A stretch of 56,087 bases of DNA, taken from positions 1 to 56,087 of the forward strand of contig JBBTRT010000007.1 in the NCBI GenBank assembly GCA_038065055.1, read 5' to 3'. This document shows, piece after piece, positions 34,182 through 51,892 of the stretch (positions are counted from its first letter, which is position 1; every line of letters starts with the position of its first letter). Under the pieces are notes generated by a model. The model saw nothing but the letters and a program-made list of their open reading frames with translations. It had not been told where the DNA came from and searched no databases. The position numbers were made by a program, and so were the translations under genes. Source of the stretch: Patescibacteria group bacterium. Lineage in GTDB: Bacteria; Patescibacteriota; Microgenomatia; UBA1400; CG1-02-47-37.

Positions 34182-35486
34182 TTGACAATGAAAGCTTTTG
34201 GTGATATATTCTCATTACCAATGAAATCTTTCGAACAAATCCGCCTCGCCCTAATCGAACAAAAACAGGAATTTATAAACCAAAACCCAGGCACAACCAG
34301 AAACCTGTTGACGGTAGTCGCCCGGTACGTTAAAACGCCGTTTCCGGTCATTATTTCCGGGTTGCGCCGGGCCGGAAAATCCACCCTATTGGCCCAATTG
34401 GCCCGCCGGTTTTATCCTAACGGAAATTATTTCTATGTTAATTTTGAAGACGAGCGGTTTTTAGCTTTTTCCGCTGCGGATTTTGCCCGGCTTCATGAAC
34501 TGCTCATCGAGCTTTTTGGCAACCAAAAGGTATTTATTTTTGATGAAATTCAAAATATTGCCGGCTGGGAAAGATTTATCAACCGCATGGCCAAAGGAAA
34601 ATATAAATTTTATATTACCGGTTCCAATGCCGCGCTTCTTTCCCGGGAACTGGGCACAAAATTGACCGGCCGCTACTTGCCGGTCGAACTATTTCCCTTC
34701 TCCTTTGATGAATACCTGCGTTTCCGGAAAATTCCCCGCCCGAATTTAACCCGGCTCACCACCGTCCAAAAGGGCGGATTAAAAAAAGCTTTCGCCGCCT
34801 ACTTACAAAACGGAGGTATCCCCCAAGTCTTGCAATACCCCCAACTGCCTTTGGCAAAAACGCTTTACGACGATATTCTTAACCGGGACGTCGCCCAAAG
34901 ATACAAAATTACCGATATCAAATCTTTAAGAGGGTTGACTTTTTATCTTTTCAGCAACATCGCCTCGCTGATTTCTTACAATAAACTTAAACAGCTGCTG
35001 CAGCTGGGCAGCGTCAATACTGTTTCCGGATACATCGAATATTTACAGGCAAGTTGGTTAATTTTTGCCGTCAACCGCTACGCTTTTTCCGTTAAAAAAC
35101 AGCAAATCGCCAATAAAAAAATTTACGGCATCGATACCGGATTGATTAAAACCGTATCTTTTTCTTTTTCCCAAAACCGGGGAAAATTTTTGGAAAACAT
35201 TGTCTTTCTTCAACTTTGCCGGGAAAATCGGGAAAATATTTACTACTATAAAACCGCCGCCAACCATGAAGTTGATTTTTACCTGCCGCGTAACAAAACT
35301 TTTATCCAGGTTTGCCGCAGCCTGACTGATACTCAAACTCAAACCAGGGAAACCCAAGCTCTGGCTGAAGCCATGAAAGAAATCAAAAACAGCCGCGGCC
35401 TGATTTTAACCGAGGCGGAAACCAGCCGCCTTTATCTTAATCAACAATCGGTTCCGGTAATACCGATTTATGAATGGCTGCTATAA
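34182..35486 (+). CDS. AAA+ ATPase with a C-terminal DUF4143/PD-(D/E)xK-like domain (copy 1)
   Basis: Walker A (GLRRAGKST), Walker B (FIFDEIQ), and a C-terminal HEVDFYL nuclease-like motif. Confidence 0.8.
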   Translation: MTMKAFGDIFSLPMKSFEQIRLALIEQKQEFINQNPGTTRNLLTVVARYVKTPFPVIISGLRRAGKSTLLAQLARRFYPNGNYFYVNFEDERFLAFSAADFARLHELLIELFGNQKVFIFDEIQNIAGWERFINRMAKGKYKFYITGSNAALLSRELGTKLTGRYLPVELFPFSFDEYLRFRKIPRPNLTRLTTVQKGGLKKAFAAYLQNGGIPQVLQYPQLPLAKTLYDDILNRDVAQRYKITDIKSLRGLTFYLFSNIASLISYNKLKQLLQLGSVNTVSGYIEYLQASWLIFAVNRYAFSVKKQQIANKKIYGIDTGLIKTVSFSFSQNRGKFLENIVFLQLCRENRENIYYYKTAANHEVDFYLPRNKTFIQVCRSLTDTQTQTRETQALAEAMKEIKNSRGLILTEAETSRLYLNQQSVPVIPIYEWLL

Positions 35487-35968
35487 TTAAACTTATGAAA
35501 ATAGGTAAAGAATATATTTTATTAATCATCGCCGGTCTGTTTTTATTGGCTTACGTCCTGCAATCGGGTGTTAAACCTCTGACTATCAACCTGACCTCGC
35601 CGTACGCTTTCCTCAGGGCCGAATATTGGCAAACATTTCCTTTTACCACCGCCATTATTCTTATCCGCGGCCTGGCCTTATTTATTCTCCCTTTATGGCT
35701 CTTCTCTTTTTTCGGCCCGGCCCATTATGCTAAAGTTGCCACCCTCTTAATTCTCTCCGGCTTGGCCCAGCTTTATGCGCTTCAGGAAGTAATTACCGGC
35801 GCCAAAATGGTCCCCCTGGAATGGTCGCTGTCTTTATCTCTCTCCGGCATGGCTCTGCTTTTACCCACGCTGATTTTTTTCCTCCAGGGCTTAATCCACT
35901 CCGCTCACCAGAAAATTTCCAGCGCCCCCAACCCGTTTGCTAAAGACGAAAACGAGAACGACGATTAA
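35474..35968 (+). CDS. polytopic membrane protein
   Basis: 164-aa ORF with approximately 5 hydrophobic helices. Confidence 0.5.
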   Translation: MAAIIKLMKIGKEYILLIIAGLFLLAYVLQSGVKPLTINLTSPYAFLRAEYWQTFPFTTAIILIRGLALFILPLWLFSFFGPAHYAKVATLLILSGLAQLYALQEVITGAKMVPLEWSLSLSLSGMALLLPTLIFFLQGLIHSAHQKISSAPNPFAKDENENDD

Positions 35969-36680
35969 TCAAAAGCCAGTTAATTACTTCTTTCTGTAAA
36001 ACAGGAATTATCTTTTTTTGGCCTCTTGGTAAAAATTTTCCTAAATCTTTGACTAATACTGTCTGGGGAATTGATTCTAATCTTTTAATAATTTGGTCTT
36101 TTAATTTTCCTGTCCGTATGCCTCTTGAAAGTAACCACCAAATGTCAAAAATGTCGCGGCCTTTCTGCCGAAATTCTAAGGCTTTAAATTTTTCGCTTAA
36201 AATTCTCTCCTCTGAAAGATGAAATATTTGGGGAAAAATCATCACCGGGAACCGGGTGGTTAAGGTCGAAATTTGCCTGTTTTTGATTATTTTTTGTTGG
36301 TGAAAATCCAGCCTAATACTCAACGGATATTTGAATTCACTGCTGTTATAGATAATTCTAAAACGAATCCCCTCTTTTCCCTTATATAATGGGTCAAGTT
36401 TTATATTTGGAAGCTCTCGGCTAATTTTTCCTACAATCTTTTTTAAAAGTCTGGTAATTTGTGAATCCTGGCAATTTGTGGAAAAATCTAAATCCTCTGA
36501 AAACCTAGGCGAGCCAAAAAGAAGCCTTAAAGCTGTTCCGCCTTTAAATATAATCTTGCTGGCTTCTTTTTCCTGATATAAATAACTCAAGAAAACTAAT
36601 TGCAAATATTCTCTAAAAATACTATATTCATCCATCTGAAAAATTATTGATAAGTCTTTAATTTGATCTGTGGTGATCAT
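35940..36680 (-). CDS. AbiEii/AbiGii-family nucleotidyltransferase toxin
   Basis: FKGGTALRLLFGSPRFSEDLDFS motif. Confidence 0.8.
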   Translation of the reverse strand: MITTDQIKDLSIIFQMDEYSIFREYLQLVFLSYLYQEKEASKIIFKGGTALRLLFGSPRFSEDLDFSTNCQDSQITRLLKKIVGKISRELPNIKLDPLYKGKEGIRFRIIYNSSEFKYPLSIRLDFHQQKIIKNRQISTLTTRFPVMIFPQIFHLSEERILSEKFKALEFRQKGRDIFDIWWLLSRGIRTGKLKDQIIKRLESIPQTVLVKDLGKFLPRGQKKIIPVLQKEVINWLLINRRSRFRL

Positions 36681-37261
36681 AGGTGTTTTTTAATTTCTCT
36701 ATATATTGTCTGCCCGTATATTTTAGCCCATTTTAAAAGTATTTTTTTCTCCAGCCTGGTTATATCTATTTCTTCCCAGTCCAAATTAGCCAACCCTTTC
36801 GAAGCAAAATAAACATAATCTAAAAGCGCCTTTTCCGGCCTGGCAATTAAAAAATCCGCTTTTTTCTCCCAACCCCAAAAAAGCTTAGGGTCAATTTTTG
36901 AATAAATAAAATCTTTTCCGTCAATTATATAATTTTTAGATTTTTTAATACCAATCGATGTAATTTGATAAGAAAAACCGGTCATTATTGAATGAAATGA
37001 TAAGGCCGACTGCATCGAGATATACGACGGTTGATACAAAAAATTGGCCATCGAAAAATCGTCAACCGCTTTTAAGGTAAAATAATATTTGCCTTTAATC
37101 ACTTTTTGTAAAATCTTATTCCTGGTCAGCCGTTGAATTCTTTTGTATAAAGTTTGCCGATTATTAATCGCTAAAATTCCCCCCAATTCATTTAAGCTAA
37201 AAAAAGGAATGCTTTTCAAAGAAAGTTTCTTAACTATTTGACTTATTGATAACGTTACCAT
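36677..37261 (-). CDS. AbiEi-like antitoxin/transcriptional regulator
   Basis: N-terminal wHTH (...RIQRLTRNKILQKVIKGKYY). Its stop overlaps the toxin start by 4 nt. Confidence 0.7.
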   Translation of the reverse strand: MVTLSISQIVKKLSLKSIPFFSLNELGGILAINNRQTLYKRIQRLTRNKILQKVIKGKYYFTLKAVDDFSMANFLYQPSYISMQSALSFHSIMTGFSYQITSIGIKKSKNYIIDGKDFIYSKIDPKLFWGWEKKADFLIARPEKALLDYVYFASKGLANLDWEEIDITRLEKKILLKWAKIYGQTIYREIKKHL

Positions 37262-37271
37262 AATTAGGACA

Positions 37272-37300
37272 AATATATACTAATTAATGAACTCTGTCAA
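37272..37300 (-). promoter_or_regulatory. sigma70-like promoter (TTGACA, 17 nt, TATATT) for the AbiEi/AbiEii pair
   Basis: Read on the minus strand. The -35 lies within sequence duplicated at 39615-39620. Confidence 0.45.
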
Positions 37301-37303
37301 ACA

Positions 37304-38323
37304 TTAAGCAATCGCATCGCTAATCTGGCTGACATAGACACTGGCCGCCAAATTGGTAATGCTGGTGTAAGTCTCCAACGGCACATATTTAGGCGCCGAC
37401 GTGGCTTTTCTCACCCTTACCCGGATCACGTCGCTGTTGGTCGCCACGCCGGTAACCACTACCGTGGAAAGACTGGCGGTGCCGATGGCCAAAATAGCCG
37501 CGGAGGTCTCATCGTAAATTTCGTAGGTCGAACCCACCACCACGTTATTTAAGGTAATCGTCGCTAAATCCAAGGGGTATTGATAATCCTGGGCGGTCGT
37601 AGTTGAAATGGTTGTCAGATAAACGCTGGTGATAGCCGTGGCGTTAGTCGTACTCGTCGTGATTTCTAATTTCAGTTTAAAACCATTAACGGCGCTTATA
37701 CTGGCTTCACCGCTTAACGCCGTTCCCAGCGTGGTGGCTGTTTTACTTGCCGACCAAGCGCTAAATCCGTTGCCATCATTTTTATCTATTTGATAACGGT
37801 AAGTATAGTTAGTGGCTGTTCCTCCGGCCATGACTCCAGCCGTATTAGTAAATCCTGTATATCCAATAATGTATTCGGGTATGGTAAAGACGGCTATTTG
37901 ACCAACCGTTGGCATATACAGACCGCCGGCGCTGGTAAAAGCCGCCCCGCCGGATAAAGTCGCTTGTGAACTTGTCAGCGAGGTAGTTTCATTCATTATA
38001 ATAACGATTCTTCCGGCAGTAGTTGAAGTGTGGCAGTCAAAAAAGTGGGTTCCGTAAATACTGGTCGCGGCCGTGAGGGCCGGAACGCCGCCAATACCTT
38101 TACGGGTCAAATTCAACATATTATTTAAATCAGCGCCGTCAGCATAATCTGTAAACACATTTTCAAACGTAATTCTCGTAGATGAGTTGTCTGGCGAAGT
38201 AGCACTTACGTAGTAAATACCATTTAACCTTGTATTAGAACAATACACGCGCTGGACTTTTATGTATGTCAAGTACCGATTAGTCAAGCCTGGGTAAACA
38301 ACCAAGCCCAAAACGTCAGCCAA
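37304..38323 (-). pseudogene. 5'-truncated second copy (silent cassette?) of the fibre-like gene
   Basis: Homologous to the last approximately 335 aa of the 856-aa protein. It has no ATG; the ORF opens at TTG and the frame is open back to the ATPase TGA. No promoter was seen. Confidence 0.6.
37326..37684. repeat. 359-bp block 100 percent identical to 39646..40004 (direct repeat)
   Basis: Compared line by line with an offset of 2320. Identity ends abruptly at 37684/40004. Confidence 0.95.
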
Positions 38324-38380
38324 AAAATGACTGCCGCTTCCGATCCGTTTGACGATGAAGAAGATTAAAAACCGCCGGAA

Positions 38381-39583
38381 TCAATTGATAGCGGTGTAGG
38401 GAATATAATTAACTTTATTTTTTGCAACAATTTTGTTATCCACTAAAGATATTACAGTCTGACTGACAAATCTAGTTGACTTTTTAGTAAAATAATTCAT
38501 CCCTACGGCAAAAGCATCTTTGATCGACGCGGATAATTTAATTTCTATTAGATTAAGCCCGTTGTCCTCGATGACTAAATCAACCTCATGCCCTTCTTTG
38601 TCTCTAAGATAATAAATTGCTGGTTCTCTCCCTCTAAATAGATAGCTTTTGATAATCTCAGAAATTATGTAAGTTTCAAAAAACGCGCCCGGCATCGCCC
38701 CGGCTTGAAGCGCTTCCGGGGTCCCCCATTTAGTCAGATATGCAACCAGTCCGGTATCCAAAAAGTAAAGCTTGGGTGATTTGATAATTCTTTTGGTAAC
38801 GTTGGGAAAATATGGCCTTAATAGATAAATTTGCCGGGTGTTTTCCAAAATACCCAACCATTCAACCGCAGTGGTGGGAGATACCCCGCTATCTCTGGCT
38901 AAATCCGAAATATTTAATACCTGGCCTGTTCTGGCCGCACAAACCTGGATAAAACGATTAAATTCACTGGTTTTATTCACCCCGAAAATTCCCACCAAAT
39001 CCCTATCCAAATATGTTTGGATATAAGAATTAAAATATACTTCCCGGTTTGGGACCGGTTTTGATTGAAATATGGGAAAGCCGCCGGCAAAAATATCTCT
39101 GAATAGATCATTTATTTTAGGCTTTCGGTAAATACCGCCAAATGGGTATTTACCGGACATCCGGTCCAGATTTTTTTCCGCCATCGATAAACCAAGAATA
39201 TTTAATACTGCCACTCTTCCGGCAAGAGACTCCTGGATATTTCTGATTAAGCTGAATTGCTGTGAACCGGTCAACCAGAATTGCCCATTTTTGCCCGACT
39301 GATCAACAATTTTTTTTATCTGGGAAAAAAGCTCGGGGGCATATTGCACCTCGTCAATGATAGCCGGTAAAGGCAATTGCTGCAGGAATAAAGCCGGATC
39401 TTTTTGGGCTAATTCCCTTTGATTTAAATCATCCAAAGTAATATAGCTGAATTTTTTATTCTCGGCTAATTTTTTTAAAACTGTTGTTTTCCCTACCTGC
39501 CGGGGCCCGCCTAAAAACACCACCTTAAAAGTCTGGCTCGATTCCCAGATAACCGGTTCAATAAACCTAGGAATATATTTCAT
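38381..39583 (-). CDS. AAA+ ATPase with a DUF4143/PD-(D/E)xK-like C-terminal domain (copy 2)
   Basis: GGPRQVGKTT Walker A, IIDEVQ Walker B, HEVDLVI. Confidence 0.8.
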   Translation of the reverse strand: MKYIPRFIEPVIWESSQTFKVVFLGGPRQVGKTTVLKKLAENKKFSYITLDDLNQRELAQKDPALFLQQLPLPAIIDEVQYAPELFSQIKKIVDQSGKNGQFWLTGSQQFSLIRNIQESLAGRVAVLNILGLSMAEKNLDRMSGKYPFGGIYRKPKINDLFRDIFAGGFPIFQSKPVPNREVYFNSYIQTYLDRDLVGIFGVNKTSEFNRFIQVCAARTGQVLNISDLARDSGVSPTTAVEWLGILENTRQIYLLRPYFPNVTKRIIKSPKLYFLDTGLVAYLTKWGTPEALQAGAMPGAFFETYIISEIIKSYLFRGREPAIYYLRDKEGHEVDLVIEDNGLNLIEIKLSASIKDAFAVGMNYFTKKSTRFVSQTVISLVDNKIVAKNKVNYIPYTAIN

Positions 39584-39591
39584 ATATGACC

Positions 39592-39620
39592 ATTTTAAAC
39601 TATCACTTTAAATTAGTCAA
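39592..39620 (-). promoter_or_regulatory. sigma70-like promoter (TTGACT, 17 nt, TAAAAT), 8 nt before the ATPase ATG
   Basis: Read on the minus strand. Suggests a leaderless-type transcript. Confidence 0.45.
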
Positions 39621-39623
39621 GTT

Positions 39624-42194
39624 TTAAGCAATCACGTCGGCGATTTGGCTGACATAGACACTGGCCGCCAAATTGGTAATGCTGGTGTAAGTCTCCAACG
39701 GCACATATTTAGGCGCCGACGTGGCTTTTCTCACCCTTACCCGGATCACGTCGCTGTTGGTCGCCACGCCGGTAACCACTACCGTGGAAAGACTGGCGGT
39801 GCCGATGGCCAAAATAGCCGCGGAGGTCTCATCGTAAATTTCGTAGGTCGAACCCACCACCACGTTATTTAAGGTAATCGTCGCTAAATCCAAGGGGTAT
39901 TGATAATCCTGGGCGGTCGTAGTTGAAATGGTTGTCAGATAAACGCTGGTGATAGCCGTGGCGTTAGTCGTACTCGTCGTGATTTCTAATTTCAGTTTAA
40001 AACCGAGACTGGCATCTATTCCGGTCAAACCATTCAAAGCTGTTCCAAGAGTTGTGGCCGTATAACCGGCTGACAACGCGCTGTATCCATTCCCGTCATT
40101 TTTATCTATTTGATATTTATAGGTGTAGTTGGTCGCTGTCCCGCCCGCCATTACCAAAGCGGTATTGGAAAATCCGGTGTGGCCAATAATATAGTTTGGC
40201 GTCGTAAAAGTGACGCTGTGGCCAATCACCGGCATATACAGTCCGCCCGCCGAAGTGAAAGCGGCCCCGTTTAATAAGGCCACTTGTCCGCTGGTATCAG
40301 CCGACGCCTCGTTCATGAGAATAGCAATCCTGCCGGCCGTAGTCGAGGTAAAACCGTCTCTCCAGTGCGTGCCATATACTGAAGTTTGGGCGGTCAAGGC
40401 CCCGGTCCCACCCATGCCTTTGCGAGATAAATTAAGGACCGCCATCACGTCAACCGCGTCCGCATAATCACCCCAAACATTTTCTTCGGTAATATCTTTA
40501 GAGGAGTTGTCCGCCGTCATGATCCCGGTTCTGGTATTACTGCAGTAAACCCGCTGGATTTTGATATCAAAACAAGCTCCAGCGGCAGGTATGGTATAAA
40601 TCAGTCCGCAAATGTTAGCGCTGCCAAAAGTTAAGGGAACGGCTCTCGTGCCAATATTGCGCAACTTAATATTCGCGCACCCCGTGGTCATATAAAGAAG
40701 TGAGGTATATGGATGGGTATTGGTCACCGGTAAGGTCAAACCGGTAAAAGTACAGTTAATCGTGTTGGCCGAGAGCATCCATACATAAGTGGCATAGGTA
40801 GTGACCGTGGTACCGCTTACCGCATTCGCATACACTACATCAGTCGTGGTAATCCCGTCACAGGTTATAAAAGCCATCGGACCTTGAATAATATTGGGAT
40901 TGGTCCAGGTACATTGCTTTAACCGCGTGCCATTAACTGCATAAGTTGTAGCATTACCTTTTATAGTATTAGCCCGGATAGTGTCCCTTACAAAAGTAAA
41001 GCCCGTAATGTCTGTCAGGGTGTTGGTGTGCGCGCCGGAAGCGGCCTGAGATACTCTCGCCCAGACGCAATCGGTCAAGGTTCCGCCGGCAAAATTTAGA
41101 GTCATTGTCAGTGGTGACATTAAAAGAGCCGTTGTTGGTTTATTACCAACCCCGACTTTTGACCAGGTAATAGCGGTGGCACATTCTGACAATAAAATAC
41201 CGTCCACGAATCCGCTATTGGTAATTTGAATCGAATATCCTTGAGAAAATGACCCATACCAAGCCGAGTTGCATTTATCGATATTGACTACGCCGCCGCC
41301 GGTACAGGTAAAATCATAACGCGTGGCAATAGTAGCGTTGGGAATTACATTGGCAGTTCTTGCGGCAGTTGTACAGTTTTCAAGAAATACATTACCGATT
41401 ACCACAGCTAATCCCGAGGCCGGGGTATAGCCATTAGTCGCCGCCCCGGAATTACCGATACGCACCAGTCCCGTGTTATCAATCCAAACTACTTTGCCTC
41501 TGGTTGCCTCGGTACCGGTGGTAGTAGTCGTGCCGGCATTAGGGTAAAACTCATAGTCGGCCTGGCCGCTGGTTTTTTCAATAAAAACTCCGGCCGCGTA
41601 ACGCAAAAGTCCATTATTGGGAATCTGAAGTGTCTGATTCGACGCGCCGCTGGTTGTGCCGAGCGAAAACCAAGCGCCGGTAATATTAACTTCGCCCAAC
41701 CGGTTAGCGTTGATTGTCGAAGCCTCGTCCCCGACTATTTCCAGCCAACCAACGCGGCCGGCATCAGAAGCCGTAGCGGTAATTCCCGCCAAAGCCCCGG
41801 CGGCATAAGCCCCGGTTTTTTGCTTGACACGGATAAATCCGGCCGCCGGCATGGCTGCTCCTGTTGCCGTGGAAGCCGCCGTTAGCGCGGAATGAACGCC
41901 AATCAACTTACCGCTGCCGGTGCTGTTGGTAATAACCGTATTCCAAGCCGGAACATTTCCCGAACCGCCTGTGTAAGGAATCATCCAAATAGCCGTACCG
42001 TCGATATTGCATTTTCCACCAGTCGCCGCGGTAATGGTAATCGGTCCAAGAGTTGCGCTCGTTGTCTGATTTAGTCCCACCCGGCTATCTTGATCAATAG
42101 TTAAAATATACCCGGCAGTATTATAAGTATCGCCACCCGCCTTAGAAGTCAGAGCGTCTATGTTAGTATTTGCAGTTAATGTAAATGTAGCCAT
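39624..42194 (-). CDS. 856-aa Thr/Gly/Ala-rich beta-type fibre/tailspike-like protein, no signal peptide
   Basis: Long ORF with composition and repeated beta-strand-like segments typical of phage receptor-binding proteins. Its C-terminal module is shared with 37304..38323 and 45766..48189. Confidence 0.7.
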   Translation of the reverse strand: MATFTLTANTNIDALTSKAGGDTYNTAGYILTIDQDSRVGLNQTTSATLGPITITAATGGKCNIDGTAIWMIPYTGGSGNVPAWNTVITNSTGSGKLIGVHSALTAASTATGAAMPAAGFIRVKQKTGAYAAGALAGITATASDAGRVGWLEIVGDEASTINANRLGEVNITGAWFSLGTTSGASNQTLQIPNNGLLRYAAGVFIEKTSGQADYEFYPNAGTTTTTGTEATRGKVVWIDNTGLVRIGNSGAATNGYTPASGLAVVIGNVFLENCTTAARTANVIPNATIATRYDFTCTGGGVVNIDKCNSAWYGSFSQGYSIQITNSGFVDGILLSECATAITWSKVGVGNKPTTALLMSPLTMTLNFAGGTLTDCVWARVSQAASGAHTNTLTDITGFTFVRDTIRANTIKGNATTYAVNGTRLKQCTWTNPNIIQGPMAFITCDGITTTDVVYANAVSGTTVTTYATYVWMLSANTINCTFTGLTLPVTNTHPYTSLLYMTTGCANIKLRNIGTRAVPLTFGSANICGLIYTIPAAGACFDIKIQRVYCSNTRTGIMTADNSSKDITEENVWGDYADAVDVMAVLNLSRKGMGGTGALTAQTSVYGTHWRDGFTSTTAGRIAILMNEASADTSGQVALLNGAAFTSAGGLYMPVIGHSVTFTTPNYIIGHTGFSNTALVMAGGTATNYTYKYQIDKNDGNGYSALSAGYTATTLGTALNGLTGIDASLGFKLKLEITTSTTNATAITSVYLTTISTTTAQDYQYPLDLATITLNNVVVGSTYEIYDETSAAILAIGTASLSTVVVTGVATNSDVIRVRVRKATSAPKYVPLETYTSITNLAASVYVSQIADVIA
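39646..40004. repeat. 359-bp block 100 percent identical to 37326..37684
   Basis: See the partner repeat. Confidence 0.95.
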
Positions 42195-42198
42195 GAAT

Positions 42199-43248
42199 TT
42201 ATTTTAATGCTTTTTTTGAAATTTTTAACAGCTTTTTTACTTCCCGGTCAAAATCAGAGATGTAGTTTTTATCTTGTTTCTTACGGTATTTTTCAAATTC
42301 ATTTTCTGCTAAGGCGATTGCCACTTCATGGCTAATTTTCCCTTTATCTTGCAAAATATCTTCTTCATTAAACTGTAAAAAGACGTCTAACTTTTTTACC
42401 CAATCTTTCATCTTCATCGCAATTCCTTTTTTAGCTTGCATCTCCGCATAATCCAGATACATGGTGACAATCCTATTTAATTTATCCAGCTCTTTTTCGT
42501 CTAAATAGTTTTTAGCAATGATAACGTCTGTTTTTCGGATCAATCCTTTGGGCGCGTTTTTCCAAGTGGTTAGACCTAAATATGGTTTTTTATTTCCAAC
42601 TCGTTGATAAATAATTTCTGCAGCGGTTTGACCAGATATAGCAAAATGTAGTTTATTTTGTACTGTAGCAAAAAATTGTTTGGTTATTTCTTCGTTTGGA
42701 TCATAATCCAGACTACATTGGACATAAATATCGGTAATTTTTTGGTAAAACCTCCGTTCGCTCGAACGGATGTCTCTGATTCTTGCCAACTGTTCTTCAA
42801 AATAATCCTTGCCAAAAATGTTATGCGGGTCTTTTAGTTTTTCATCATTCATCGTAAAACCCTTGATAATGTATTCTTTCAGTCTTTCCGTTGCCCAAAT
42901 ACGAAAAAGGGTTGCTTGCCGGCTATTTACCCTGTAGCCAACAGATAGAATTGCATCAAGGTTGTAAAATAAGGTTTTGTACTTTTTGCCATCTTTGGCA
43001 GTATGTTCCAAAATGGAACTAACTGAATTTTCTTTTAGTTCGTTCGTCTCAAAAATATTTTTCAGATGCTTTGTTATTGCCGGTCGTTGAACCCCAAAAA
43101 GCTCCGCAATCTTCACCTGAGTCAACCAAACATTTTCATTGTGAAGAAATATCTCCACCTCTACTTTTCCATTGGGGGTAGTGTAGAGTAAAAAATCACG
43201 AACCTGAATCTTTGTATTTAGTTGATTCTTTACGTAAGTTGTGGCCAT
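42199..43248 (-). CDS. RhuM-family protein
   Basis: VWLTQVKIAELFGV...ITKHLKNIFE..EL.ENSV......TA.DGK.Y.T..YNLDAILSVGYRVNS..AT.FRIWAT.RLKEYIIKGFTM.DE.LK closely matches remembered RhuM sequences. Confidence 0.8.
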   Translation of the reverse strand: MATTYVKNQLNTKIQVRDFLLYTTPNGKVEVEIFLHNENVWLTQVKIAELFGVQRPAITKHLKNIFETNELKENSVSSILEHTAKDGKKYKTLFYNLDAILSVGYRVNSRQATLFRIWATERLKEYIIKGFTMNDEKLKDPHNIFGKDYFEEQLARIRDIRSSERRFYQKITDIYVQCSLDYDPNEEITKQFFATVQNKLHFAISGQTAAEIIYQRVGNKKPYLGLTTWKNAPKGLIRKTDVIIAKNYLDEKELDKLNRIVTMYLDYAEMQAKKGIAMKMKDWVKKLDVFLQFNEEDILQDKGKISHEVAIALAENEFEKYRKKQDKNYISDFDREVKKLLKISKKALK

Positions 43249-43251
43249 AGG

Positions 43252-43932
43252 TTATAACTTTAATTTTAACAAAAAAATCGTCTCCTGGATCAATTTGGTT
43301 TTCACCCAGGCTTTCATCTTATTGTCCAACAGCTCCCCCATGCCGTCTAAAATATTAGTTGGCGGTTTTTTCTCCAGTAAATTAAGGCATCTTTGCAGGT
43401 ATTTTTTTGGCTCTGTTTTAGTCCGCAATTTCAATAAAGCTTCATTTAAATCCCAATGATTATTTAACATAAACCAAATGTCAAAAATGTCCCTATGGGC
43501 CAATCTCTTTCTATCCAAAAGGGCGGTTAATTTGTTGGCAAACATATCCTCTGGTTTCATTACTAATGCCGGCTGGCCTAAATAATTTTTCATCTCATAC
43601 TGATTTCCAGCGCTTCTCTTGGAAATCTCGATTTTCAAATGATTCAATCCTTTTTGGTAACTTAACAGCCAAAACAAAGTGAAATATTTTTCCCTGCCCT
43701 CTTTTAAAACGCCATATTTATTAACGATTTTAGTTATTTTTTTAAAAACCAGGTCTTTTTTAGATTCATCAAGCAAATCAAAATCTAAATCTACGCTGAA
43801 ACGGGGCAAATCGTAAAAAAATTTAAGGGCAGTCCCCCCTTTAAAGCCCAACGCCGGACCGATAGTAATATCCGAGTAAATTTCTTTCACGATTTTAGTC
43901 ATTATCAATTGATGCGTAGAAATCTTTAACAT
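43252..43932 (-). CDS. AbiEii/AbiGii-family nucleotidyltransferase toxin
   Basis: FKGGTALKFFYDLPRFSVDLDFD motif. Confidence 0.8.
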   Translation of the reverse strand: MLKISTHQLIMTKIVKEIYSDITIGPALGFKGGTALKFFYDLPRFSVDLDFDLLDESKKDLVFKKITKIVNKYGVLKEGREKYFTLFWLLSYQKGLNHLKIEISKRSAGNQYEMKNYLGQPALVMKPEDMFANKLTALLDRKRLAHRDIFDIWFMLNNHWDLNEALLKLRTKTEPKKYLQRCLNLLEKKPPTNILDGMGELLDNKMKAWVKTKLIQETIFLLKLKL

Positions 43933-44485
43933 ATTTTCTAAACCTCCCTTTCATAGCCTTATTGTTATATATTTTTATCAAGTCTTCAGCTTTTCCCCAA
44001 TCAATTGGTTCTAAATTGTCAAAATAATAATTTTTAGATAAATAGATTCTGTCCAAAAAAGCTCTTTCCGCGCCGGCAATGGCATAACCGTTTTGGTTAA
44101 CTATGCCTTTCGAGTTAGTGAGTATTTCGTCTTTAATTTTTTTAAAGCTAATCGTATATTCTCCCAATTTTATTTCTCTTGTTTGATAACTTAAAACAAA
44201 AATAGTGTGACTATAATCCTGAAAAGTAATCCCGCTTCTTTGAAGAACCGTTTCCAAACTAATATATGAAGGGGTTAAAATCTTATTGGCCGCCTCCAAA
44301 ATTTCAAAATCGATGTTTTTCGCATAAAGACCTCTTTTTAAATTGATCAACCGGCCTTTTTTAACAAAATAATTGATTTTTGACTTCAACCGATTTAAGT
44401 TTGTTTCTCCAATAATTAAAGATATTTCTTGCGTAGTAAAAACTGTATTTTTTAATGAATATAAGCCAAAGGTAAGATTTTTCAT
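43895..44485 (-). CDS. AbiEi-like antitoxin/transcriptional regulator
   Basis: ...FVKKGRLINLKRGLYA wHTH pattern. Overlaps the toxin start. Confidence 0.7.
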   Translation of the reverse strand: MKNLTFGLYSLKNTVFTTQEISLIIGETNLNRLKSKINYFVKKGRLINLKRGLYAKNIDFEILEAANKILTPSYISLETVLQRSGITFQDYSHTIFVLSYQTREIKLGEYTISFKKIKDEILTNSKGIVNQNGYAIAGAERAFLDRIYLSKNYYFDNLEPIDWGKAEDLIKIYNNKAMKGRFRKYVKDFYASIDND

Positions 44486-44517
44486 TACTTCCAGCTTACA
44501 TTAACCTAAAATATTTG

Positions 44518-45648
44518 TCAAACAATCTCCCCGCCCCAAGTGTAATCATTAAATTGGGGCGACGGCTGCCGGCCAATCAGCCGGATCTTAGTTATTTTAG
44601 CTTTTTTTGCCAATCGGACCAGTGAATTAAAATCCTGACGGGTCGGAGTCTCTCGGATACCGATCCCCAGCCGTTTATCTGAAACAAAATCAATTTCCTG
44701 GCCGGTTTTTAAAGCATAATATTGCCACTTATCCAGCCCGGACAACTGATTATAAACCGTATTTTTAAACTGCGCCTCGCCTGATAACTCTGCCAGCGTG
44801 TTAACTAACCCGGTATCGCTGAAATACAGTTTTTTAGCTTTAACAATTTCCTGCTCTCCGCCGCTGGTATAAACCGGCACGGTTTTTATCAAATAACTAT
44901 TTTCCAACCTCTTCAAGTAGTCAGTTACCGTTGGCCGGGACAGCCCGGACAAACGGGCCAATTGGCTGATTTCTACCCGCTCATCCACCAACCCGGCCAG
45001 CAACTTCACCAAAGAATAAATTTTTTTCTCACTGGAAAATTCTGCGCCGGCGATAATTTCCAACAGTAAATCCCGCTTGTCCGCTTCTGCTCCGGCCAAA
45101 ACCACCTGGGGAAACCCGCCAAAACTAATATATTCTTCGTAAAAAACCGCTAACCGGTCATAATCGCCGGAATTAAAATTCCCCCGCCGCCAATCAGCTG
45201 TCAACGCCGGGATGCCTTTAAATTCCAGCCACTCTCCCCAATCAAGCGGCCGCAATTCAAACGGCTTGGCCACCAAACCGGCTAAGCTATCTGCCCGCGA
45301 TCCAATTAACACAAATTTTATCTGGTGGTGCTCGGTTAAATAGCCAATCACCTTAGCTAAATTAGGCAATAATTCCGCGTCATCCAAAGCTATTACCATC
45401 GGCCGGTCCAAGGTCAAGCCCCGATTAATAAAAATCTGCCTGATCGCGTCATAATTTGAATGTTCGAAAATCTCCCGGTTATCCGGCCGTTTTAAAGCTA
45501 GATAAAGTGAATTCTTGTTGCTGATTTCTTTTAAAGCTTGTTTCACCAAAACGGTCTTGCCGGTCCGCTTCATCCCCAACAACCCGGTAATTAAATTAGT
45601 CTGGATTTTATCCCTGAAAGCCGGGTAAATTTTCCTGGGTAAAAACAT
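44518..45648 (-). CDS. AAA+ ATPase with a DUF4143/PD-(D/E)xK-like C-terminal domain (copy 3)
   Basis: GMKRTGKTV Walker A, ALDDAE Walker B, QEIDFVS. The ATG at 45648 is preferred over the TTG at 45654. Confidence 0.8.
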   Translation of the reverse strand: MFLPRKIYPAFRDKIQTNLITGLLGMKRTGKTVLVKQALKEISNKNSLYLALKRPDNREIFEHSNYDAIRQIFINRGLTLDRPMVIALDDAELLPNLAKVIGYLTEHHQIKFVLIGSRADSLAGLVAKPFELRPLDWGEWLEFKGIPALTADWRRGNFNSGDYDRLAVFYEEYISFGGFPQVVLAGAEADKRDLLLEIIAGAEFSSEKKIYSLVKLLAGLVDERVEISQLARLSGLSRPTVTDYLKRLENSYLIKTVPVYTSGGEQEIVKAKKLYFSDTGLVNTLAELSGEAQFKNTVYNQLSGLDKWQYYALKTGQEIDFVSDKRLGIGIRETPTRQDFNSLVRLAKKAKITKIRLIGRQPSPQFNDYTWGGEIV

Positions 45649-45710
45649 ATGCAAGTTATACTTTACAAATAGTTTAACTTTTTGTCAAGTTATAGAGGAA
45701 AAAATTACTC

Positions 45711-45740
45711 TTGACACAGTCTAAAACCAAGGCATATACT
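45711..45740 (+). promoter_or_regulatory. sigma70-like promoter (TTGACA, 18 nt, TATACT) for the fibre-Tat operon
   Basis: Read directly. Lies in the divergent spacer shared with ATPase copy 3. Confidence 0.5.
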
Positions 45741-45765
45741 GAAATATTGAAGAATATAATCGGCT

Positions 45766-48189
45766 ATGTCTGATACTATTTTAACTGGCGATTTTACCAT
45801 TTATTACAGCGCTGAAAACCGGCAAAAACGGATTGTCTGGACCGGTTCGGCCACCGGCACCCGGACAGTTAACCAACTCTACTCCGCCCTCCAGGACTTA
45901 TTTGACGAACTAACCCAGATGGACGACGGCGTCCCCATGTCTGCCCAAACCCCGACCGAGTACACCATCGGCATCATCGACGCCGGTGATAAAGACCCCT
46001 GGTTTGTCGACCGGACCACGGTCGAGCATTTGACCGGCGGCGCTTTAAAAACCGCTTCCTGGGACCGGGTCACCACCACTAACACCGGTATTATTAAAGT
46101 CATCTGCAATAACACGGACATTGTCAGCGGCGACATCGGCCTGGATATTACCATCGGCACCAACACCGGTACGCTTTTGGATGTCAAAGGCACCGGCGCC
46201 GGCAGTATTCTTTGGATTAGGCCGGATTCCAATGCCGCCACTAACGACTTTGACGATGCCGGCACTTTAACCTGCAATGCCCACACCGCTGCCTGGACTT
46301 CAACCGCTTCGGCCGGCGAATCCTTATGGTCTAACATTTATACTTTAGGTACGATCGAAGCCAATACTCACCTTTATATCTCTCAAAATGGCGCCAATTT
46401 AGTCGCTTATAAAGACACCACCGACTGGTGGGCCGACGGCCACGTCGATATTTTAGTCAACGTTAAAGAATTAGGGGTGGAAACCGACGAAGGCTATATC
46501 ACCGTCGCCGCCCGACAATATAGTAAAACCTTTTCCTACTACATTGTCGACCTAACCAACGGCGGCCGGAACCCGATTCCGCTGCAAACCGGCAACGATT
46601 TAGACAACCAAACCGGCTTCTGGACATTTACCGGCTCGGCCGGATCCGCGCCCTTTACCGTCGGCGAAGTGATCTCTAAAGCCTCAACTGCCAAAAAAGG
46701 CGTCATTACGGCAATCGGCGGCACCACCGGCTCGCCGATTTTAACCTACTATTTAATCGGCGACCCAATCACCAACTTTGCTAACGGCGATACCAGTGTG
46801 ACCGGCGCCAGCTCCAGCTCCACCTGCACGGCCGGCACGCCCGCGGCCGCCGGACCGGCCGCTTTAGGCACGGCCCCGGTAATCGTCCACGGCGGTTTGA
46901 GCGACGGCGGCACCTATGATATTGACGAAAACGGCACCCCGGAAAACTATTCAATCGTCATTGACTGTAATCAAAACTCCCTGGCCAATGTTTATCAACA
47001 CTCAAAATACATTACCCGAAGAGGCGAAACAGTCACTACCAATACTGACGGCTTACAAGGTCAATTCTATGTTGGTTCTGACTATAGGCTCAGATATTCC
47101 GGGGTAATTACCGGCACCTTTTCTGAAGGTAATACTTGTACCCAGACCACGTCCGGCGCTAAAGGAACAATCGTCGAAGTCAACACGACCGATAAAATCG
47201 TCATCCTGCGTAATTCCAGAGGTACTTTTGACACCGCCAATATTGTTACCGACGATACTGCCGCGGGAACATTTACTCCAAATTCTGAAGCCTCGGCCGT
47301 GACCCCGATCGCCGCGGCTCCATTCGGCACTTTTGCCGGCGGCAAATTCTTCTGCGCCCCGGGCGTAGCTTTAACCGATTATCAAACCGGCGACGCCAAC
47401 AACTTTCAATTAGTCGACGACAACGGCACGGTCCGCGTCGCCCCTACCAAGGCCACGATTACCGTCAGCAACACCCGCGTTGGAGATAAAATTGCCGTTT
47501 TCCGCTTAACCGCTTCCGGCGGCGATATTAATAAAACCGAGTACAGCGCCACCGTCCAATCCCAAGCCGCCATAACCGCGGTTATGGGCGCGGCGATTAC
47601 CACCGACTCGCCGGGAAAGTCGGCCGGCGGCACCCTGCGCCTGGTGGATACCAGCGCCAACACCGAATACCGAATGCGGTTTTCCAGCTGGACCGCTAGC
47701 ACTTTTACTCTGGCTTATACTAACGTCGCTTCCGCCGACGCCGGCACGACCACCACTAATATTACCGAAACCGGCATCGGCACCGCCAGCCTGGTCGGTG
47801 ATTTAGTCTTAAACGTCACCCAAACAAACGCGGTTTCTTATGTGACTGCCATAGTTGACGCCAATAATGTAACGATTTCCCCGGCGATTACCGGCCAAAC
47901 CACCGCTGACAACATTAAATTCAACTGCTTACCGGTGGCCACCACCACCTCGCCGCAGGATTACTGGTACGTGCCGTTTATCGACGTCTACGAAACCACC
48001 GGCTCCAGCGGCACTCCCGGCACCGAAGCGGTCATTATCACCCACTCGGCCACTGACGCGGATATTTATATCCGGGTCCGCGCCCGGCAGGCCGGCAATA
48101 TCTTGCCGTTCGAACAAGATTCGAGCGTGGTCGGCGCCAACCCCACCACCGTCAGCGTCATTAGGACCGCCGATACTATCTTTACTTAA
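45766..48189 (+). CDS. 807-aa Thr/Gly/Ala-rich fibre-like protein, no signal peptide
   Basis: Long ORF. The C-terminal SPQDYWY...DADIYIRVRARQAGNILPFE aligns with TAQDYQY...SDVIRVRVRKATSAPKYVPLE of the 856-aa protein. Confidence 0.7.
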   Translation: MSDTILTGDFTIYYSAENRQKRIVWTGSATGTRTVNQLYSALQDLFDELTQMDDGVPMSAQTPTEYTIGIIDAGDKDPWFVDRTTVEHLTGGALKTASWDRVTTTNTGIIKVICNNTDIVSGDIGLDITIGTNTGTLLDVKGTGAGSILWIRPDSNAATNDFDDAGTLTCNAHTAAWTSTASAGESLWSNIYTLGTIEANTHLYISQNGANLVAYKDTTDWWADGHVDILVNVKELGVETDEGYITVAARQYSKTFSYYIVDLTNGGRNPIPLQTGNDLDNQTGFWTFTGSAGSAPFTVGEVISKASTAKKGVITAIGGTTGSPILTYYLIGDPITNFANGDTSVTGASSSSTCTAGTPAAAGPAALGTAPVIVHGGLSDGGTYDIDENGTPENYSIVIDCNQNSLANVYQHSKYITRRGETVTTNTDGLQGQFYVGSDYRLRYSGVITGTFSEGNTCTQTTSGAKGTIVEVNTTDKIVILRNSRGTFDTANIVTDDTAAGTFTPNSEASAVTPIAAAPFGTFAGGKFFCAPGVALTDYQTGDANNFQLVDDNGTVRVAPTKATITVSNTRVGDKIAVFRLTASGGDINKTEYSATVQSQAAITAVMGAAITTDSPGKSAGGTLRLVDTSANTEYRMRFSSWTASTFTLAYTNVASADAGTTTTNITETGIGTASLVGDLVLNVTQTNAVSYVTAIVDANNVTISPAITGQTTADNIKFNCLPVATTTSPQDYWYVPFIDVYETTGSSGTPGTEAVIITHSATDADIYIRVRARQAGNILPFEQDSSVVGANPTTVSVIRTADTIFT

Positions 48190-48198
48190 AAATAAATT

Positions 48199-48432
48199 AT
48201 GATTTATAAACGTTTTGAATTCTCTCAATCTTTAAACGGCCAACGGCTTCTCCATATTGCCCGCAACAGCGCCGGTATCGTTGTTTTTCGGGAAGAATCG
48301 GAAAACCAGCTTAAAAAAACCATTGATCAATATCTCAAACACAAACAAGAAGAAGAAGAATTGGCTAGCGCCAAAGCCACCCAAAAATTAGCGGAAAAGG
48401 CCAAGAAAAAAAAGAAAAGCTTTTTAGGATAA
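48199..48432 (+). CDS. small Lys/Glu-rich protein
   Basis: 77-aa ORF, 9 nt after the upstream stop codon. Confidence 0.45.
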   Translation: MIYKRFEFSQSLNGQRLLHIARNSAGIVVFREESENQLKKTIDQYLKHKQEEEELASAKATQKLAEKAKKKKKSFLG

Positions 48433-48438
48433 TCAAAG

Positions 48439-48666
48439 ATGACCGACCCGACTTTGCCGGTCACCAAAGAAGAACTGGACAATCTTAAAGAGATTCGCCG
48501 CTACGGAATTGAAGATTTGGAAAAATACCTAGTTAAAATCAAGAAAAATATCAGCGTCTTTGATGAAGCCATTGCCAAAGAAAACCAAGAAATGCAGCGG
48601 GTCCAAAACATGATTAAAGTTTTAGAAAACGACATTAAAGACGCCGATGACAAATTACATAATTAA
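48439..48666 (+). CDS. small coiled-coil protein
   Basis: 75-aa ORF with heptad-like charged composition. Confidence 0.45.
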   Translation: MTDPTLPVTKEELDNLKEIRRYGIEDLEKYLVKIKKNISVFDEAIAKENQEMQRVQNMIKVLENDIKDADDKLHN

Positions 48667-49366
48667 AACCCCTAAACCGGCCGAAGACCTCAAACGCATC
48701 AATGATTACTTTCTTACCTTCCTCGGTGAAATTAAACTGCCCCGGCTGGCTATCAAAGCTAAAAAACTTATTTTATCCTGTCCTGAAAACGATTCTGTTT
48801 CCGTTCCCCTGATTAGAAATTTGGGTTTGAGAATTTTTAATCCCCGCCTCAAAGCCTTTATTCCGGCTGACCCAAACATTTTGGAAGTCAACCAAACCAA
48901 CCCGATTTTTAAGCAATATCAATTAACTCCGATTTTTAGGTTTAACCACAGCCTCGTCTTTTTCTGCCGGGACAAAATCGGCCGAATTCACTTAGTCAAC
49001 CGCCACCTCCTGGAATATTTTTCCAGCAATCCTGCGCCCAACGTGGTGCGGGACAAAAATTTCAGCGCCGTCATCGCTAAAAATATCGCTACTTTTATTG
49101 CCCTAATTGACCGGGGTTTGATTCCTCTGGACTATTATCAGTACTCTAAAATAATCAATCTTTCCGGTTTAAATTTAACCAAAACCCTGAAAAAAATAAT
49201 CTACTTCCAGTTGGATGAGGTGAACCAAACCTTTATCCAAACCGGCCGGGAACTAACTAAAATCCCCAAAAAATACCTGGCAATTAAAGTCAACCAGGAC
49301 GTTAATTTCATCAAAAAATCTAACCGGCTGGTACCGCAACTAAACGTTTCGATTTTTTTAGCCTAA
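48647..49366 (+). CDS. hypothetical protein (239 aa)
   Basis: ORF overlapping the upstream gene by 20 nt. No recognised motif. Confidence 0.5.
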   Translation: MTNYIIKTPKPAEDLKRINDYFLTFLGEIKLPRLAIKAKKLILSCPENDSVSVPLIRNLGLRIFNPRLKAFIPADPNILEVNQTNPIFKQYQLTPIFRFNHSLVFFCRDKIGRIHLVNRHLLEYFSSNPAPNVVRDKNFSAVIAKNIATFIALIDRGLIPLDYYQYSKIINLSGLNLTKTLKKIIYFQLDEVNQTFIQTGRELTKIPKKYLAIKVNQDVNFIKKSNRLVPQLNVSIFLA

Positions 49367-49374
49367 AATAAGTT

Positions 49375-50670
49375 ATGGCCACTTTAACCTTTTTTAAAAC
49401 CGAACGGGTCATTCAAGTTGACTCTCCCCAAACCGTCATCACCATTCAGGATTTACTTAATCAAATCCGGCTCTACGAAGAACAGCCGATCAACCTCGAT
49501 TACGCCACCATCGCCAATGCCTACGGCAAACAGCCGCTGGGCGGCGGCTCGTACATCGGCATCACTCTGGAACTGATTAACGACTGGCGGATCGCTTTTG
49601 AAGCCCGGCCTGGTCCCAGTACAATTCTCTGCACCGCCTCCGGCGGCAACTTAGTTGCCATCAATAATTACAGCAATAACCCGATTAAACCCACCGCCTT
49701 TACCCAAATAGTCATTTCCCAATCGTCGTCGCCGACGATCATCCAAGCCGATCCTGACTACGCCACCCTCTATCTTTTGGAATCACTGCGCGGCCGCAAT
49801 AAATCCGTCGGCGGTATTTGGTACTGGAACCCAACCAGCGGCAGTGACGGCAGTGACGGCTTAACTCCGGCTAAAGCCGTCGCCACTTTTGCTAAAGCCC
49901 AAACCTTGGCTTCGGCCGGAACCGGCGATATTATTTTCGCTCTCGCAACGGCCGGCGGCGGCACCACTACGGTTACCGAAACTTTAAATATTACGAAAAA
50001 CAATTTAAAAATCCGCGGCGCCGGTTACGCCTTTCAGCTGGCCCCGGCCGTGGCCGGATCGCCAACCATCACCATCGGATCGGACAACGTCGAGGTCTCC
50101 GGTTTTTACCTGACTACTGCCGCCGGCGGCACTGACAACGGTGTCACTATTACCGGAAACAACACTCTAATCGAAGGCTGCTGGGTAAAATCAGCCACCG
50201 CCAACGGCATCGATCTGGCCGGCGCCGGCCGGACAACTATTGATACCTGCGCCGTTGAGTCCTGTGCCGGCAACGGCCTTAATCTGGGCGCCGGCACCAC
50301 TTTATCGAAAATCAAACAATGTATTTTAACCGGCAATCTCGACGGCGCCAACCTTGCCGGATCGGGCATCGCTGACAATATTTTTGAAAATAATTTAATT
50401 TACAATAATTCCGGCTACGGCATTGACATCGGTGCCGGGGTCGCTCGTACCGGCGTCCGTTTAAACCATACTTTTTCCGGCAACACCGCCGGGCCCACCA
50501 GAGACTTGGGCGCGGGCACCTTTATCGAAACCCAAGCCGGCGGCGCTTCGGCCACCGATATTGCCGACGCGGTTTGGGACGAAGTCATCGCCGGCCACGC
50601 CACCCCCGGCACTACCGCTCGGGTCCTTAAAGACGCTAAAATGAAAGCCACTATTGCCTCCCTAAGATAA
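49375..50670 (+). CDS. right-handed parallel beta-helix (PbH1 repeat) tailspike-like protein, no signal peptide
   Basis: Successive approximately 22-aa turns (NGVTITGNNTLIEGC / ANGIDLAGAGRTTIDTC / GNGLNLGAGTTLSKI / NNLIYNNSGYGIDIGAG). The C-terminal DIADAVWDEVIAGHATPGTTA motif is remembered from phage fibre proteins. Confidence 0.7.
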   Translation: MATLTFFKTERVIQVDSPQTVITIQDLLNQIRLYEEQPINLDYATIANAYGKQPLGGGSYIGITLELINDWRIAFEARPGPSTILCTASGGNLVAINNYSNNPIKPTAFTQIVISQSSSPTIIQADPDYATLYLLESLRGRNKSVGGIWYWNPTSGSDGSDGLTPAKAVATFAKAQTLASAGTGDIIFALATAGGGTTTVTETLNITKNNLKIRGAGYAFQLAPAVAGSPTITIGSDNVEVSGFYLTTAAGGTDNGVTITGNNTLIEGCWVKSATANGIDLAGAGRTTIDTCAVESCAGNGLNLGAGTTLSKIKQCILTGNLDGANLAGSGIADNIFENNLIYNNSGYGIDIGAGVARTGVRLNHTFSGNTAGPTRDLGAGTFIETQAGGASATDIADAVWDEVIAGHATPGTTARVLKDAKMKATIASLR

Positions 50671-50672
50671 CT

Positions 50673-51389: not shown

Positions 51390-51391
51390 TT

Positions 51392-51717: not shown

Positions 51718-51718
51718 T

Positions 51719-51886: not shown

Positions 51887-51892
51887 CTGCCT

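Follow-up and report, generated by a model that had tools for sequence, protein, structure and literature searches.

Organization of the locus

We analyzed a stretch of 56,087 nucleotides (nt) from a groundwater Patescibacteria group bacterium (assembly GCA_038065055.1, contig JBBTRT010000007.1, positions 1 to 56,087; hereafter the window), in which a gene for a tailspike-like protein is followed by an ATPase gene and then by a 5'-truncated homologue of the first gene. All three open reading frames (ORFs) lie on the minus strand. The full-length gene (39624-42194), delimited as an ORF and assigned from its homologues, an AlphaFold2 (AF2) model and Foldseek matches, encodes 856 amino acids (aa), and its ATG is 4 nt past the stop codon of a RhuM gene. 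The ATPase of 400 aa (38381-39583) carries AAA_14 and DUF4143 domains (Pfam E = 1e-43 and 1e-29) and falls into the PADLOC candidate defence family PDC-S01 (E = 8e-105). The truncated copy has an open frame of 339 codons with a TTG start (37304-38323).

The two copies share an exact direct repeat of 359 nt. Positions 37326-37684 within the truncated copy (R2) are identical base for base to 39646-40004 in the long gene (R1; aa ~731-851), at an offset of 2320, as a preliminary description of this DNA had reported. R1 comprises the last strands of the penultimate β-sandwich and a small C-terminal CnaB/Ig-like domain. The homologous parts on the 5' side are diverged: V1 of the long copy (40005-40565; aa 544-730) and V2 of the truncated copy (37685-38263) are 63% identical at the nt level and 67% at the aa level, and their synonymous divergence (dS) is saturated. 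The protein identity of two-thirds that had been estimated by eye was borne out, whereas the length given for this part, about 215 aa, has to be reduced to ∼190 aa. We observed that aa 21-339 of the short copy align with aa 544-856 of the long one, so the second copy is indeed truncated at its 5' end, and that homology starts exactly at IK[IV]QRVYCSNTR, the segment near which its end had been placed. Neither the 20 codons with which the short ORF opens nor the 57 nt between them and the ATPase stop are related to the tailspike family.

The last five codons of the copies differ (ISDAIA versus IADVIA) and similarity resumes at TTGAC, both as described before, with promoter-like sites after both stop codons. 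One of these, TTGACT-17-TAAAAT (39620-39592, minus strand), is directly 3' of the long-gene stop and in front of the ATPase gene; the other, TTGACA-17-TATATT (37300-37272, minus strand), is 3' of the short-copy stop and in front of an AbiEi gene. The last five codons and the stop of the short copy (37304-37325) have the indel state of the long copy at 39624-39645, namely ATTGCTTAA followed by 3 nt and TTGAC. In the related loci L037 and L039 (see below), the native state is a TGA stop inside the TTGACA box, a state that the short-copy tail does not have.

Upstream of its homologous part the short ORF lacks an ATG, and it has neither a Shine-Dalgarno (SD)-like sequence nor a promoter-like site of its own; two gene callers place its start differently (339 versus 314 aa). 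In agreement with the earlier statement that the frame is open back to the ATPase stop, the ORF is in the reading frame of the ATPase gene and a single TGA (38381-38383) separates the two. Read-through of this TGA, or an alternative code, that would fuse the ATPase and the short ORF is unlikely; the ATPase is complete against the models and TGA ends 4 of the 23 ORFs. We found no RNA run containing the region. The short copy is probably transcribed by read-through from the ATPase promoter and not productively translated.

Origin of the truncated copy

We compared the truncated copy with two full-length 867-aa tailspike genes, P0013 and P0017, from other genomes of the Candidate Phyla Radiation (CPR); the locus of P0017 is designated L037. 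V2 is 95% identical to P0013 and 92% to P0017 at the aa level, versus about 66-67% to the long copy that lies next to it. Against P0013 it shows 85% nt identity, a nonsynonymous divergence (dN) of 0.027, a dS of 0.945 and a dN/dS ratio (ω) of 0.03. A tree of the V region places the short copy together with L004 and L037 and at a large distance from the long one.

The neighbourhood of the short copy points in the same direction. L037 has the gene order AAA_14, full-length P0017 tailspike, AbiEi, AbiEii and AAA_14 (minus strand), and blastn found it collinear with the window from the 3' part of the tailspike gene through AbiEii (L037 4841-7126 with window 38269-35980). The AbiEi (36677-37261) and AbiEii (35940-36680) genes of the window, both on the minus strand and assigned by Pfam and PADLOC, are 78% and 66% identical in aa sequence to the L037 pair downstream of P0017 and would be the genes natively found downstream of the truncated copy. 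The short copy also has the same 3' flanking sequence as L037 and L039, promoter and AbiEi start-codon region included, and the promoter-like site at 37272-37300 has its homologous counterpart beside the native gene in these two loci. The AAA_14 gene upstream of P0017 matches the window gene at 44518-45654 (50% aa identity) and not the ATPase between the two copies (27%).

On the strength of the L037 synteny, the V2 identity and the shared 3' flank, we consider the short copy most likely to be the remnant of the native gene of this site, an allele of the P0013/P0017 type, and not a recent duplicate. The close match of V2 to P0013 and P0017, together with the saturated dS between V1 and V2, rules out a recent duplication in situ. 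The earlier view of a silent cassette, or a second copy of the same gene, therefore had to be given up: the short copy represents an anciently diverged allele that is full-length elsewhere and that has kept its native downstream neighbours here. The arrangement of a full-length and a truncated gene is absent from five related single-copy loci (L004, L007/L038, L010, L037 and L039) and from all phage loci.

As ω is 0.03 at a dS of 0.95 against P0013, almost all of the divergence predates any loss of function. In favour of decay, the remnant carries a His155Tyr change (H671 in the numbering of the long copy) at a position where His is invariant in 44 homologues; against it, the frame of 339 codons is still open. 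We favour the explanation that the truncation is recent over the one that the fragment is constrained.

Gene conversion within the identical block

At the divergence of V1 and V2, ∼130 differences would be expected in 359 nt and none was observed. Within the block dS is 0, with no synonymous difference, and directly beside it dS is saturated. We also followed conservation along the family (44 homologues, windows of 20 aa). Pairwise identity is 0.52-0.90 over residues 1-770, including 0.61-0.80 over aa 544-730, and drops to ∼0.25 over the last ∼85 residues. The proposed division into an invariant C-terminal module for assembly or chaperoning and a variable binding part is contradicted by this profile at the level of the family, since the last ∼85 aa are the least conserved of the family (∼25%) and aa 544-730 are well conserved (61-80%). 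Because synonymous differences are lacking in the least conserved domain of the family, the identity of the block reflects recent gene conversion and not constraint, and the abrupt switch from perfect identity to diverged sequence had been correctly read as its signature.

Three comparisons bear on the direction of the conversion. The block is 69-72% identical in aa sequence to the C-termini of P0013 and P0017, while the adjacent V2 is 92-95% identical to the same genes; between P0013 and P0017 themselves, C-terminal identity is 82-97%; and the GC content at third codon positions (GC3) is 0.63 in R, nearer to V1 (0.56) than to V2 (0.41). These values suggest, without settling it, that the main conversion ran from the long copy to the short one.

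Proposed inserted block and defence island

The native-type, full-length tailspike gene of L037 stands between AbiEi and AbiEii on its downstream side and, immediately upstream, the AAA_14 gene with 50% identity to the window gene at 44518-45654. Because of this order, the ∼6.25 kb of the window between these two points (38264-44517, genes on the minus strand) is taken as an inserted or replacing block. It contains, according to Pfam and PADLOC, AbiEi (43895-44485), AbiEii (43252-43932), RhuM/PDC-S05 (42199-43248), the long tailspike gene, the PDC-S01 ATPase and a junction. The same block is present in strain L005.

The junction, 117 nt from the ATPase stop to the start of tailspike homology (38264-38380), has no match in any locus and probably marks an illegitimate joint; the block would then have been joined homologously at one end and illegitimately at the other. 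On its plus strand the junction ends in ...SQKMTAASDPFDDEED*, which resembles the C-terminus of a 164-aa membrane protein encoded at 35474-35968. This likeness is suggestive only, with 4 of 2000 shuffles reaching its score. Membrane proteins of this type are located downstream of tailspike genes in these genomes, and the junction peptide hints at an origin of the block in a similarly organized locus, as a possible remnant of a gene of the donor locus. Some further contigs of the same samples, of depth 5-33 and up to 2.3 kb long, agree with the window in just the 33 nt at 38255-38287 and then continue in unlike sequence; they are probably other sequences of the community.

The block lies in a defence and toxin-antitoxin island (34182-45654) with two AbiEi/AbiEii pairs, three PDC-S01 genes and one RhuM gene (PDC-S05). 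The three PDC-S01 genes, assigned by PADLOC, encode AAA_14-DUF4143 ATPases (34182-35486, 38381-39583 and 44518-45654). The tailspike loci L037 and L038 also have AbiE and AAA_14 genes.

Assembly and population variation

Since a perfect repeat can be produced by misassembly, a possibility raised in the preliminary description, we examined independent data. Two independent assemblies, which come from different filters, match the window without a difference over 22.5 kb. A 187.8-kb contig, probably a long-read assembly judging from its name and error type, is collinear with the window from 45935 to 29281 across both copies, with differences that are mostly indels. We also used Logan consensus contigs from 16 DNA runs of five studies (2019-2025). 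Most of the high-coverage runs show the repeat as a unitig of its own, at ∼1.3-2.5 times the flank depth; in these runs the middle segment has a depth like that of the flanks, and both R/V junctions are present. The layout is thus the same in the independent assemblies and in the 16 public runs.

Two long-copy haplotypes coexist from 2019 to 2025. Over ∼6.5 kb compared, the sole differences are at 39661 and 39666, on the 3' border of R1, where codon 845 is AGT (Ser) or AAT (Asn) and codon 843 is GCG or GCC (minus strand). In the 359-nt state, seen in X1, X3 and the window, the two copies agree as far as 39646; in the 338-nt state (X2 and X4-X9) the long copy has T at 39661 and G at 39666, so that codon 845 is AAT, and the two copies can be told apart at the 3' edge. 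X1 and X5, which carry different haplotypes, come from the same sample. The strain L005/P0001, 2% diverged, also has the T/G state, which is therefore likely ancestral; if so, a short tract was copied from the remnant into the full-length gene. Alternatively, the patch may have been imported from an L005-like strain. Between 39646 and 46640 we counted 149 differences between the window and L005, clustered in patches (48 in 41000-41399, 33 in 44800-45199, 20 in 45800-45999 and 13 in 42200-42399) and separated by long stretches with none, which indicates that homologous recombination between strains is common here. A variant patch at 40404-40521 in X10/L005 was considered as a conversion by V2 and rejected: it changes 8 sites where ∼45 would be expected, and 3 of the 8 are unlike V2.

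Direct repeats of 359 nt should permit RecA-dependent loss of the 2,320-bp unit made up of the ATPase gene and V2. No such deleted form was seen in the contigs of the 16 runs, nor was any other deletion, recombinant joint or chimera. Metagenomes of the Joint Genome Institute (JGI) contained neither the predicted deletion or recombinant junction nor the parental junction; the population is absent from that collection, which makes this search uninformative. The expected population heterogeneity was thus weakly supported, by the two-site haplotypes at the edge of the block, one of which matches the short copy, and was not supported as regards chimeric contigs.

The 98%-identical strain L005 lacks 9.4 kb of the window (46641-56032; L005 joint at 4474-4528). 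The missing segment comprises the 3' part of an 807-aa gene, a 431-aa beta-helix gene, TatC, four TatA genes and a 768-aa gene, and the joint has an overlap of 10 nt, consistent with a deletion variant.

Proposed history and alternative explanations

We consider it probable that two anciently diverged tailspike alleles stand in tandem here, a native gene reduced to a remnant by the incoming block and the allele which the block brought in, and that gene conversion followed as a by-product and not as a device for variation. Originally, a native allele of the P0013/P0017 type would have occupied the chromosomal site. The ∼6.25-kb block with its AbiE pair, RhuM, new tailspike allele and PDC-S01 ATPase would then have come in front of codon ∼545, with one of its ends joined illegitimately, and the native allele would have lost its first ∼545 codons. 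This would have left two 3' ends 2.3 kb apart in direct orientation, on which homologous recombination could overwrite 359 nt, most likely from the long copy to the remnant. Another small exchange, at the 3' border of the block, probably ran in the opposite direction. The identity would then have arisen incidentally, through concerted evolution of a gene with the remnant next to it, in a defence island that turns over fast.

Several observations weigh against this history. No pre-insertion state was found for this species. The tail of the short copy differs from the long copy at ∼10 of 24 nt right beside 359 identical nt, and the model leaves the history of the tail unexplained. The case for the direction of the main conversion is weak, being built on composition and identity, with R ∼66-72% identical to the C-termini of both lineages. 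The frame of the remnant is open over 339 codons and has 7 lineage-specific aa changes, the same number as the intact P0017; decay is not demonstrated by these figures, and the remnant may be very young or still under selection. Finally, the population data are consensus contigs, from which rare chimeras would escape.

Among known processes, the one that comes closest is concerted evolution in which gene conversion links a gene to a remnant beside it, here inside a defence island. Conversion between a gene and a nearby paralogue or pseudogene is known from, for example, the duplicate tuf genes of Salmonella and human CYP21A2/CYP21A1P. As in these cases, one chromosome holds two homologous stretches, a sharply bordered tract of perfect identity without synonymous differences is set in diverged surroundings, and the borders of the tract vary between haplotypes. 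Unlike in these cases, the partner here would be a decapitated native allele left after insertion of a foreign one, in a defence island of Patescibacteria. The insertion itself recalls homology-facilitated illegitimate recombination, described for the uptake of foreign DNA in Acinetobacter and Streptococcus pneumoniae: a foreign block stands beside conserved flanks, and one end (38263/38264) has no homology at the joint. In contrast to the cases described in those organisms, the event is deduced here from its end product alone.

The preliminary description had likened the layout to variation of the pilE/pilS type. In a programmed system of this kind, the truncated, promoterless copy would be kept as a silent source from which the expressed tailspike gene is rewritten again and again, so that its specificity changes. 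In Neisseria pilE/pilS the initiating element is a sequence that forms a G-quadruplex (G4), and analogous systems are Borrelia vlsE, Mycoplasma genitalium MgPa/MgPar and Treponema tprK. Superficially the locus fits, with a full-length gene and a co-oriented, 5'-truncated copy that has an intact frame and lacks its own promoter (although here it is a single copy behind the ATPase promoter). The 359 nt could serve as a perfect anchor, and non-reciprocal transfer is plausible and may have happened once, as the long-copy haplotypes differ only at 39661/39666 and the derived-looking one equals the short copy (N845 to S). However, one donor stands here in place of many. The conserved anchors that had been proposed exist only on the 3' side; on the 5' side no exact match exceeds 7 nt at QRVYCSNTR or 20 nt in the whole of the 63%-identical V region. 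The part that differs (aa 544-730) is conserved in the family, and the hypervariable domain is the identical part. The layout does not recur in relatives, and synteny explains the donor as a gene remnant. Moreover, we found no G4 motif on either strand of 35000-46500, no recombinase among the genes scanned nearby, and no chimera, mosaic or joint among the consensus contigs of 16 runs over 6 years; the X10/L005 patch changes far fewer sites than copying of V2 would. We therefore regard programmed variation as very unlikely. The same slim chance is all that we would give to the idea of a phage tailspike domesticated in Microgenomates (CPR), as a surface adhesin or depolymerase or as a decoy poisoning phage tails, in which the partial copy would be a one-cassette C-terminal donor and the N845/S845 haplotypes its first visible product. 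Other switching systems were rejected as well. A diversity-generating retroelement is not supported, with no reverse transcriptase among the genes scanned within ±10 kb, an identical repeat, and V1/V2 differences that involve all bases without A bias. An invertible switch of the Gin/Cin or shufflon type does not fit direct repeats, and neither significant inverted repeats nor a recombinase or invertase gene were found.

The short ORF might instead be a working gene, co-transcribed with the ATPase gene and translated from a TTG or GTG start into a stand-alone C-terminal β-sandwich protein, for example a partner or competitor of the tailspike, with its C-terminal domain kept matched to that of the long protein by conversion. 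The open frame, the ω of 0.03 against P0013 and the retention of nearly all family-invariant residues agree with this, gene callers annotate the ORF, and we found no terminator-like site on the minus strand between the ATPase gene and the ORF. The fragment modelled alone also reached a mean predicted local distance difference test (pLDDT) score of 83. However, its first ∼80 residues are poorly modelled, and it starts in the middle of the β-helix region, at strand E541-551 of the full model, and not at a domain boundary. The ORF has neither ATG nor SD sequence, and the two callers disagree on its start. The low ω mostly reflects history before the truncation, an invariant His has become Tyr, no equivalent short gene stands beside the tailspike genes of relatives, and no RNA data were found. 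We regard a working gene as unlikely. Tandem duplication in situ, after which the copies diverged except for a 3' end that selection or conversion held identical, would account for two co-oriented copies 2.3 kb apart. It is at odds with the near-identity of V2 to a gene of another genome (95%, as against 67% to V1), with the saturated dS, with the tree that puts the short copy with L004 and L037, and with flanks that are those of the native locus; we hold it to be highly improbable. As regards an assembly artefact, either a repeat that was collapsed or wrongly duplicated or a 2,320-bp circle beside a single-copy chromosome, it is true that the repeat is longer than short reads, that De Bruijn unitigs cannot phase it, and that one related contig (L005) breaks at the repeat end. 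The agreement of the independent assemblies, the collinear 187.8-kb contig, the depth of the repeat and middle unitigs, and the 338-state haplotype with its distinguishable copies reduce this possibility to a practically negligible one.

Taking the insertion and conversion history as probable, the locus offers a natural example of turnover at a defence-island hotspot in an ultra-small bacterium, where a foreign block replaces the front of a gene and recombination homogenizes what is left over. It also indicates that homologous recombination is active in these organisms, and the 339-codon ORF deserves a flag as a probable remnant in annotations. Gene replacement with conversion is an ordinary, well-documented kind of event, and no new mechanism is involved.

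The tailspike-like family

The more interesting lead is the family itself, an uncharacterized and strongly conserved group of tailspike-like proteins common to phages of very different GC content and to a syntenic chromosomal locus of Microgenomates. The 856-aa protein has no match in Pfam, PHROG, NCBIfam, PADLOC or the sequences of the Protein Data Bank (PDB). It has more than 800 homologues at 57-98% identity and of near-constant length (∼852 aa). We modelled it as a monomer with AF2 from 44 homologues (pLDDT 84.4, predicted TM-score 0.82) and obtained an almost entirely β-structured fold. Foldseek searches of PDB and BFVD returned phage tailspikes and capsule depolymerases as the top matches with probability ∼1 (0.9-1.0) and TM-scores of just ∼0.2, among them the HK620 tailspike (4xn0), the Klebsiella K1 lyase (7w1c), phi297 gp61 (4ru5) and AP22 gp54 (4y9v). 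The protein is thus predicted to fold as a right-handed parallel β-helix phage tailspike, which agrees with the earlier designation of the gene as fibre-like. The C-terminal 339 residues modelled alone gave weak matches to adhesins and to β-sandwiches like those of carbohydrate-binding modules, and the last ∼90 residues matched a CnaB2 domain (8bdw). No signal peptide is present, and the N-terminal part is conserved as in the phage proteins.

The fold class and the position of homologues at the end of tail modules are those of phage tailspikes and depolymerases; unlike the solved tailspikes, the family has no sequence-level relation to any solved structure or curated family. The phage homologues come after the tape-measure gene and before the lysis genes. 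In L003 the gene is followed by a GH108 endolysin and an integrase, the L006 homologue is on a 69.7-kb phage contig with Acb2/Tad2 genes, and MW202577, a complete genome of 39.6 kb, has its homologue in the tail module. In phages the tailspike gene is always followed by a gene for a conserved ∼450-aa protein, a partner missing from the bacterial loci; the 807-aa neighbour in the window was considered as a relative of this partner and shows no significant similarity to it. In contrast to L003, L006 and MW202577, the window gene is chromosomal, with no other phage genes nearby. A prophage in the window was also rejected, as there are no phage structural, integrase or terminase genes among the ORFs scanned and the tailspike gene is the sole gene common to the phage loci. 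In the Microgenomates/Woesebacteria chromosomes the gene stands between a block of Tat, beta-helix and large-protein genes and a small membrane protein gene, again with no other phage genes nearby. Such syntenic loci occur in several genomes of these groups; the family as a whole was noted in L003, L004, L006, L007/L038, L011-L037, L039 and L040.

Close homologues are 57-80% identical in aa sequence between phage tail modules and the chromosomal locus, which is unusually high for tailspikes of phages whose flank GC ranges from 30 to 65%. The GC content of the tailspike gene follows that of its flanks (33 to 64%). Because of this, and of the strong conservation, the family is regarded as old and strongly constrained, and not as a fresh transfer. 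Our search for literature on tailspikes or tail-fibre gene conversion in CPR/Patescibacteria returned nothing relevant. If these bacteria do use the tailspike themselves, it could bear on the attachment of episymbiotic CPR bacteria to their hosts or on phage resistance.

A related protein was found in L042 (GCA_963852535.1, a 2.4-Mb contig), where 434 aa are 52% identical to the C-terminal part of the family. It is encoded in a prophage-like region with a portal gene and has a shorter architecture with the same C-terminal modules. The window regions 48647-51389 and 51954-54260 hold four tandem TatA genes and TatC, a 431-aa Beta_helix protein and two proteins of 807 and 768 aa without domain matches. 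The same Tat/Beta_helix/large-protein block adjoins the tailspike gene in L004 and L039.

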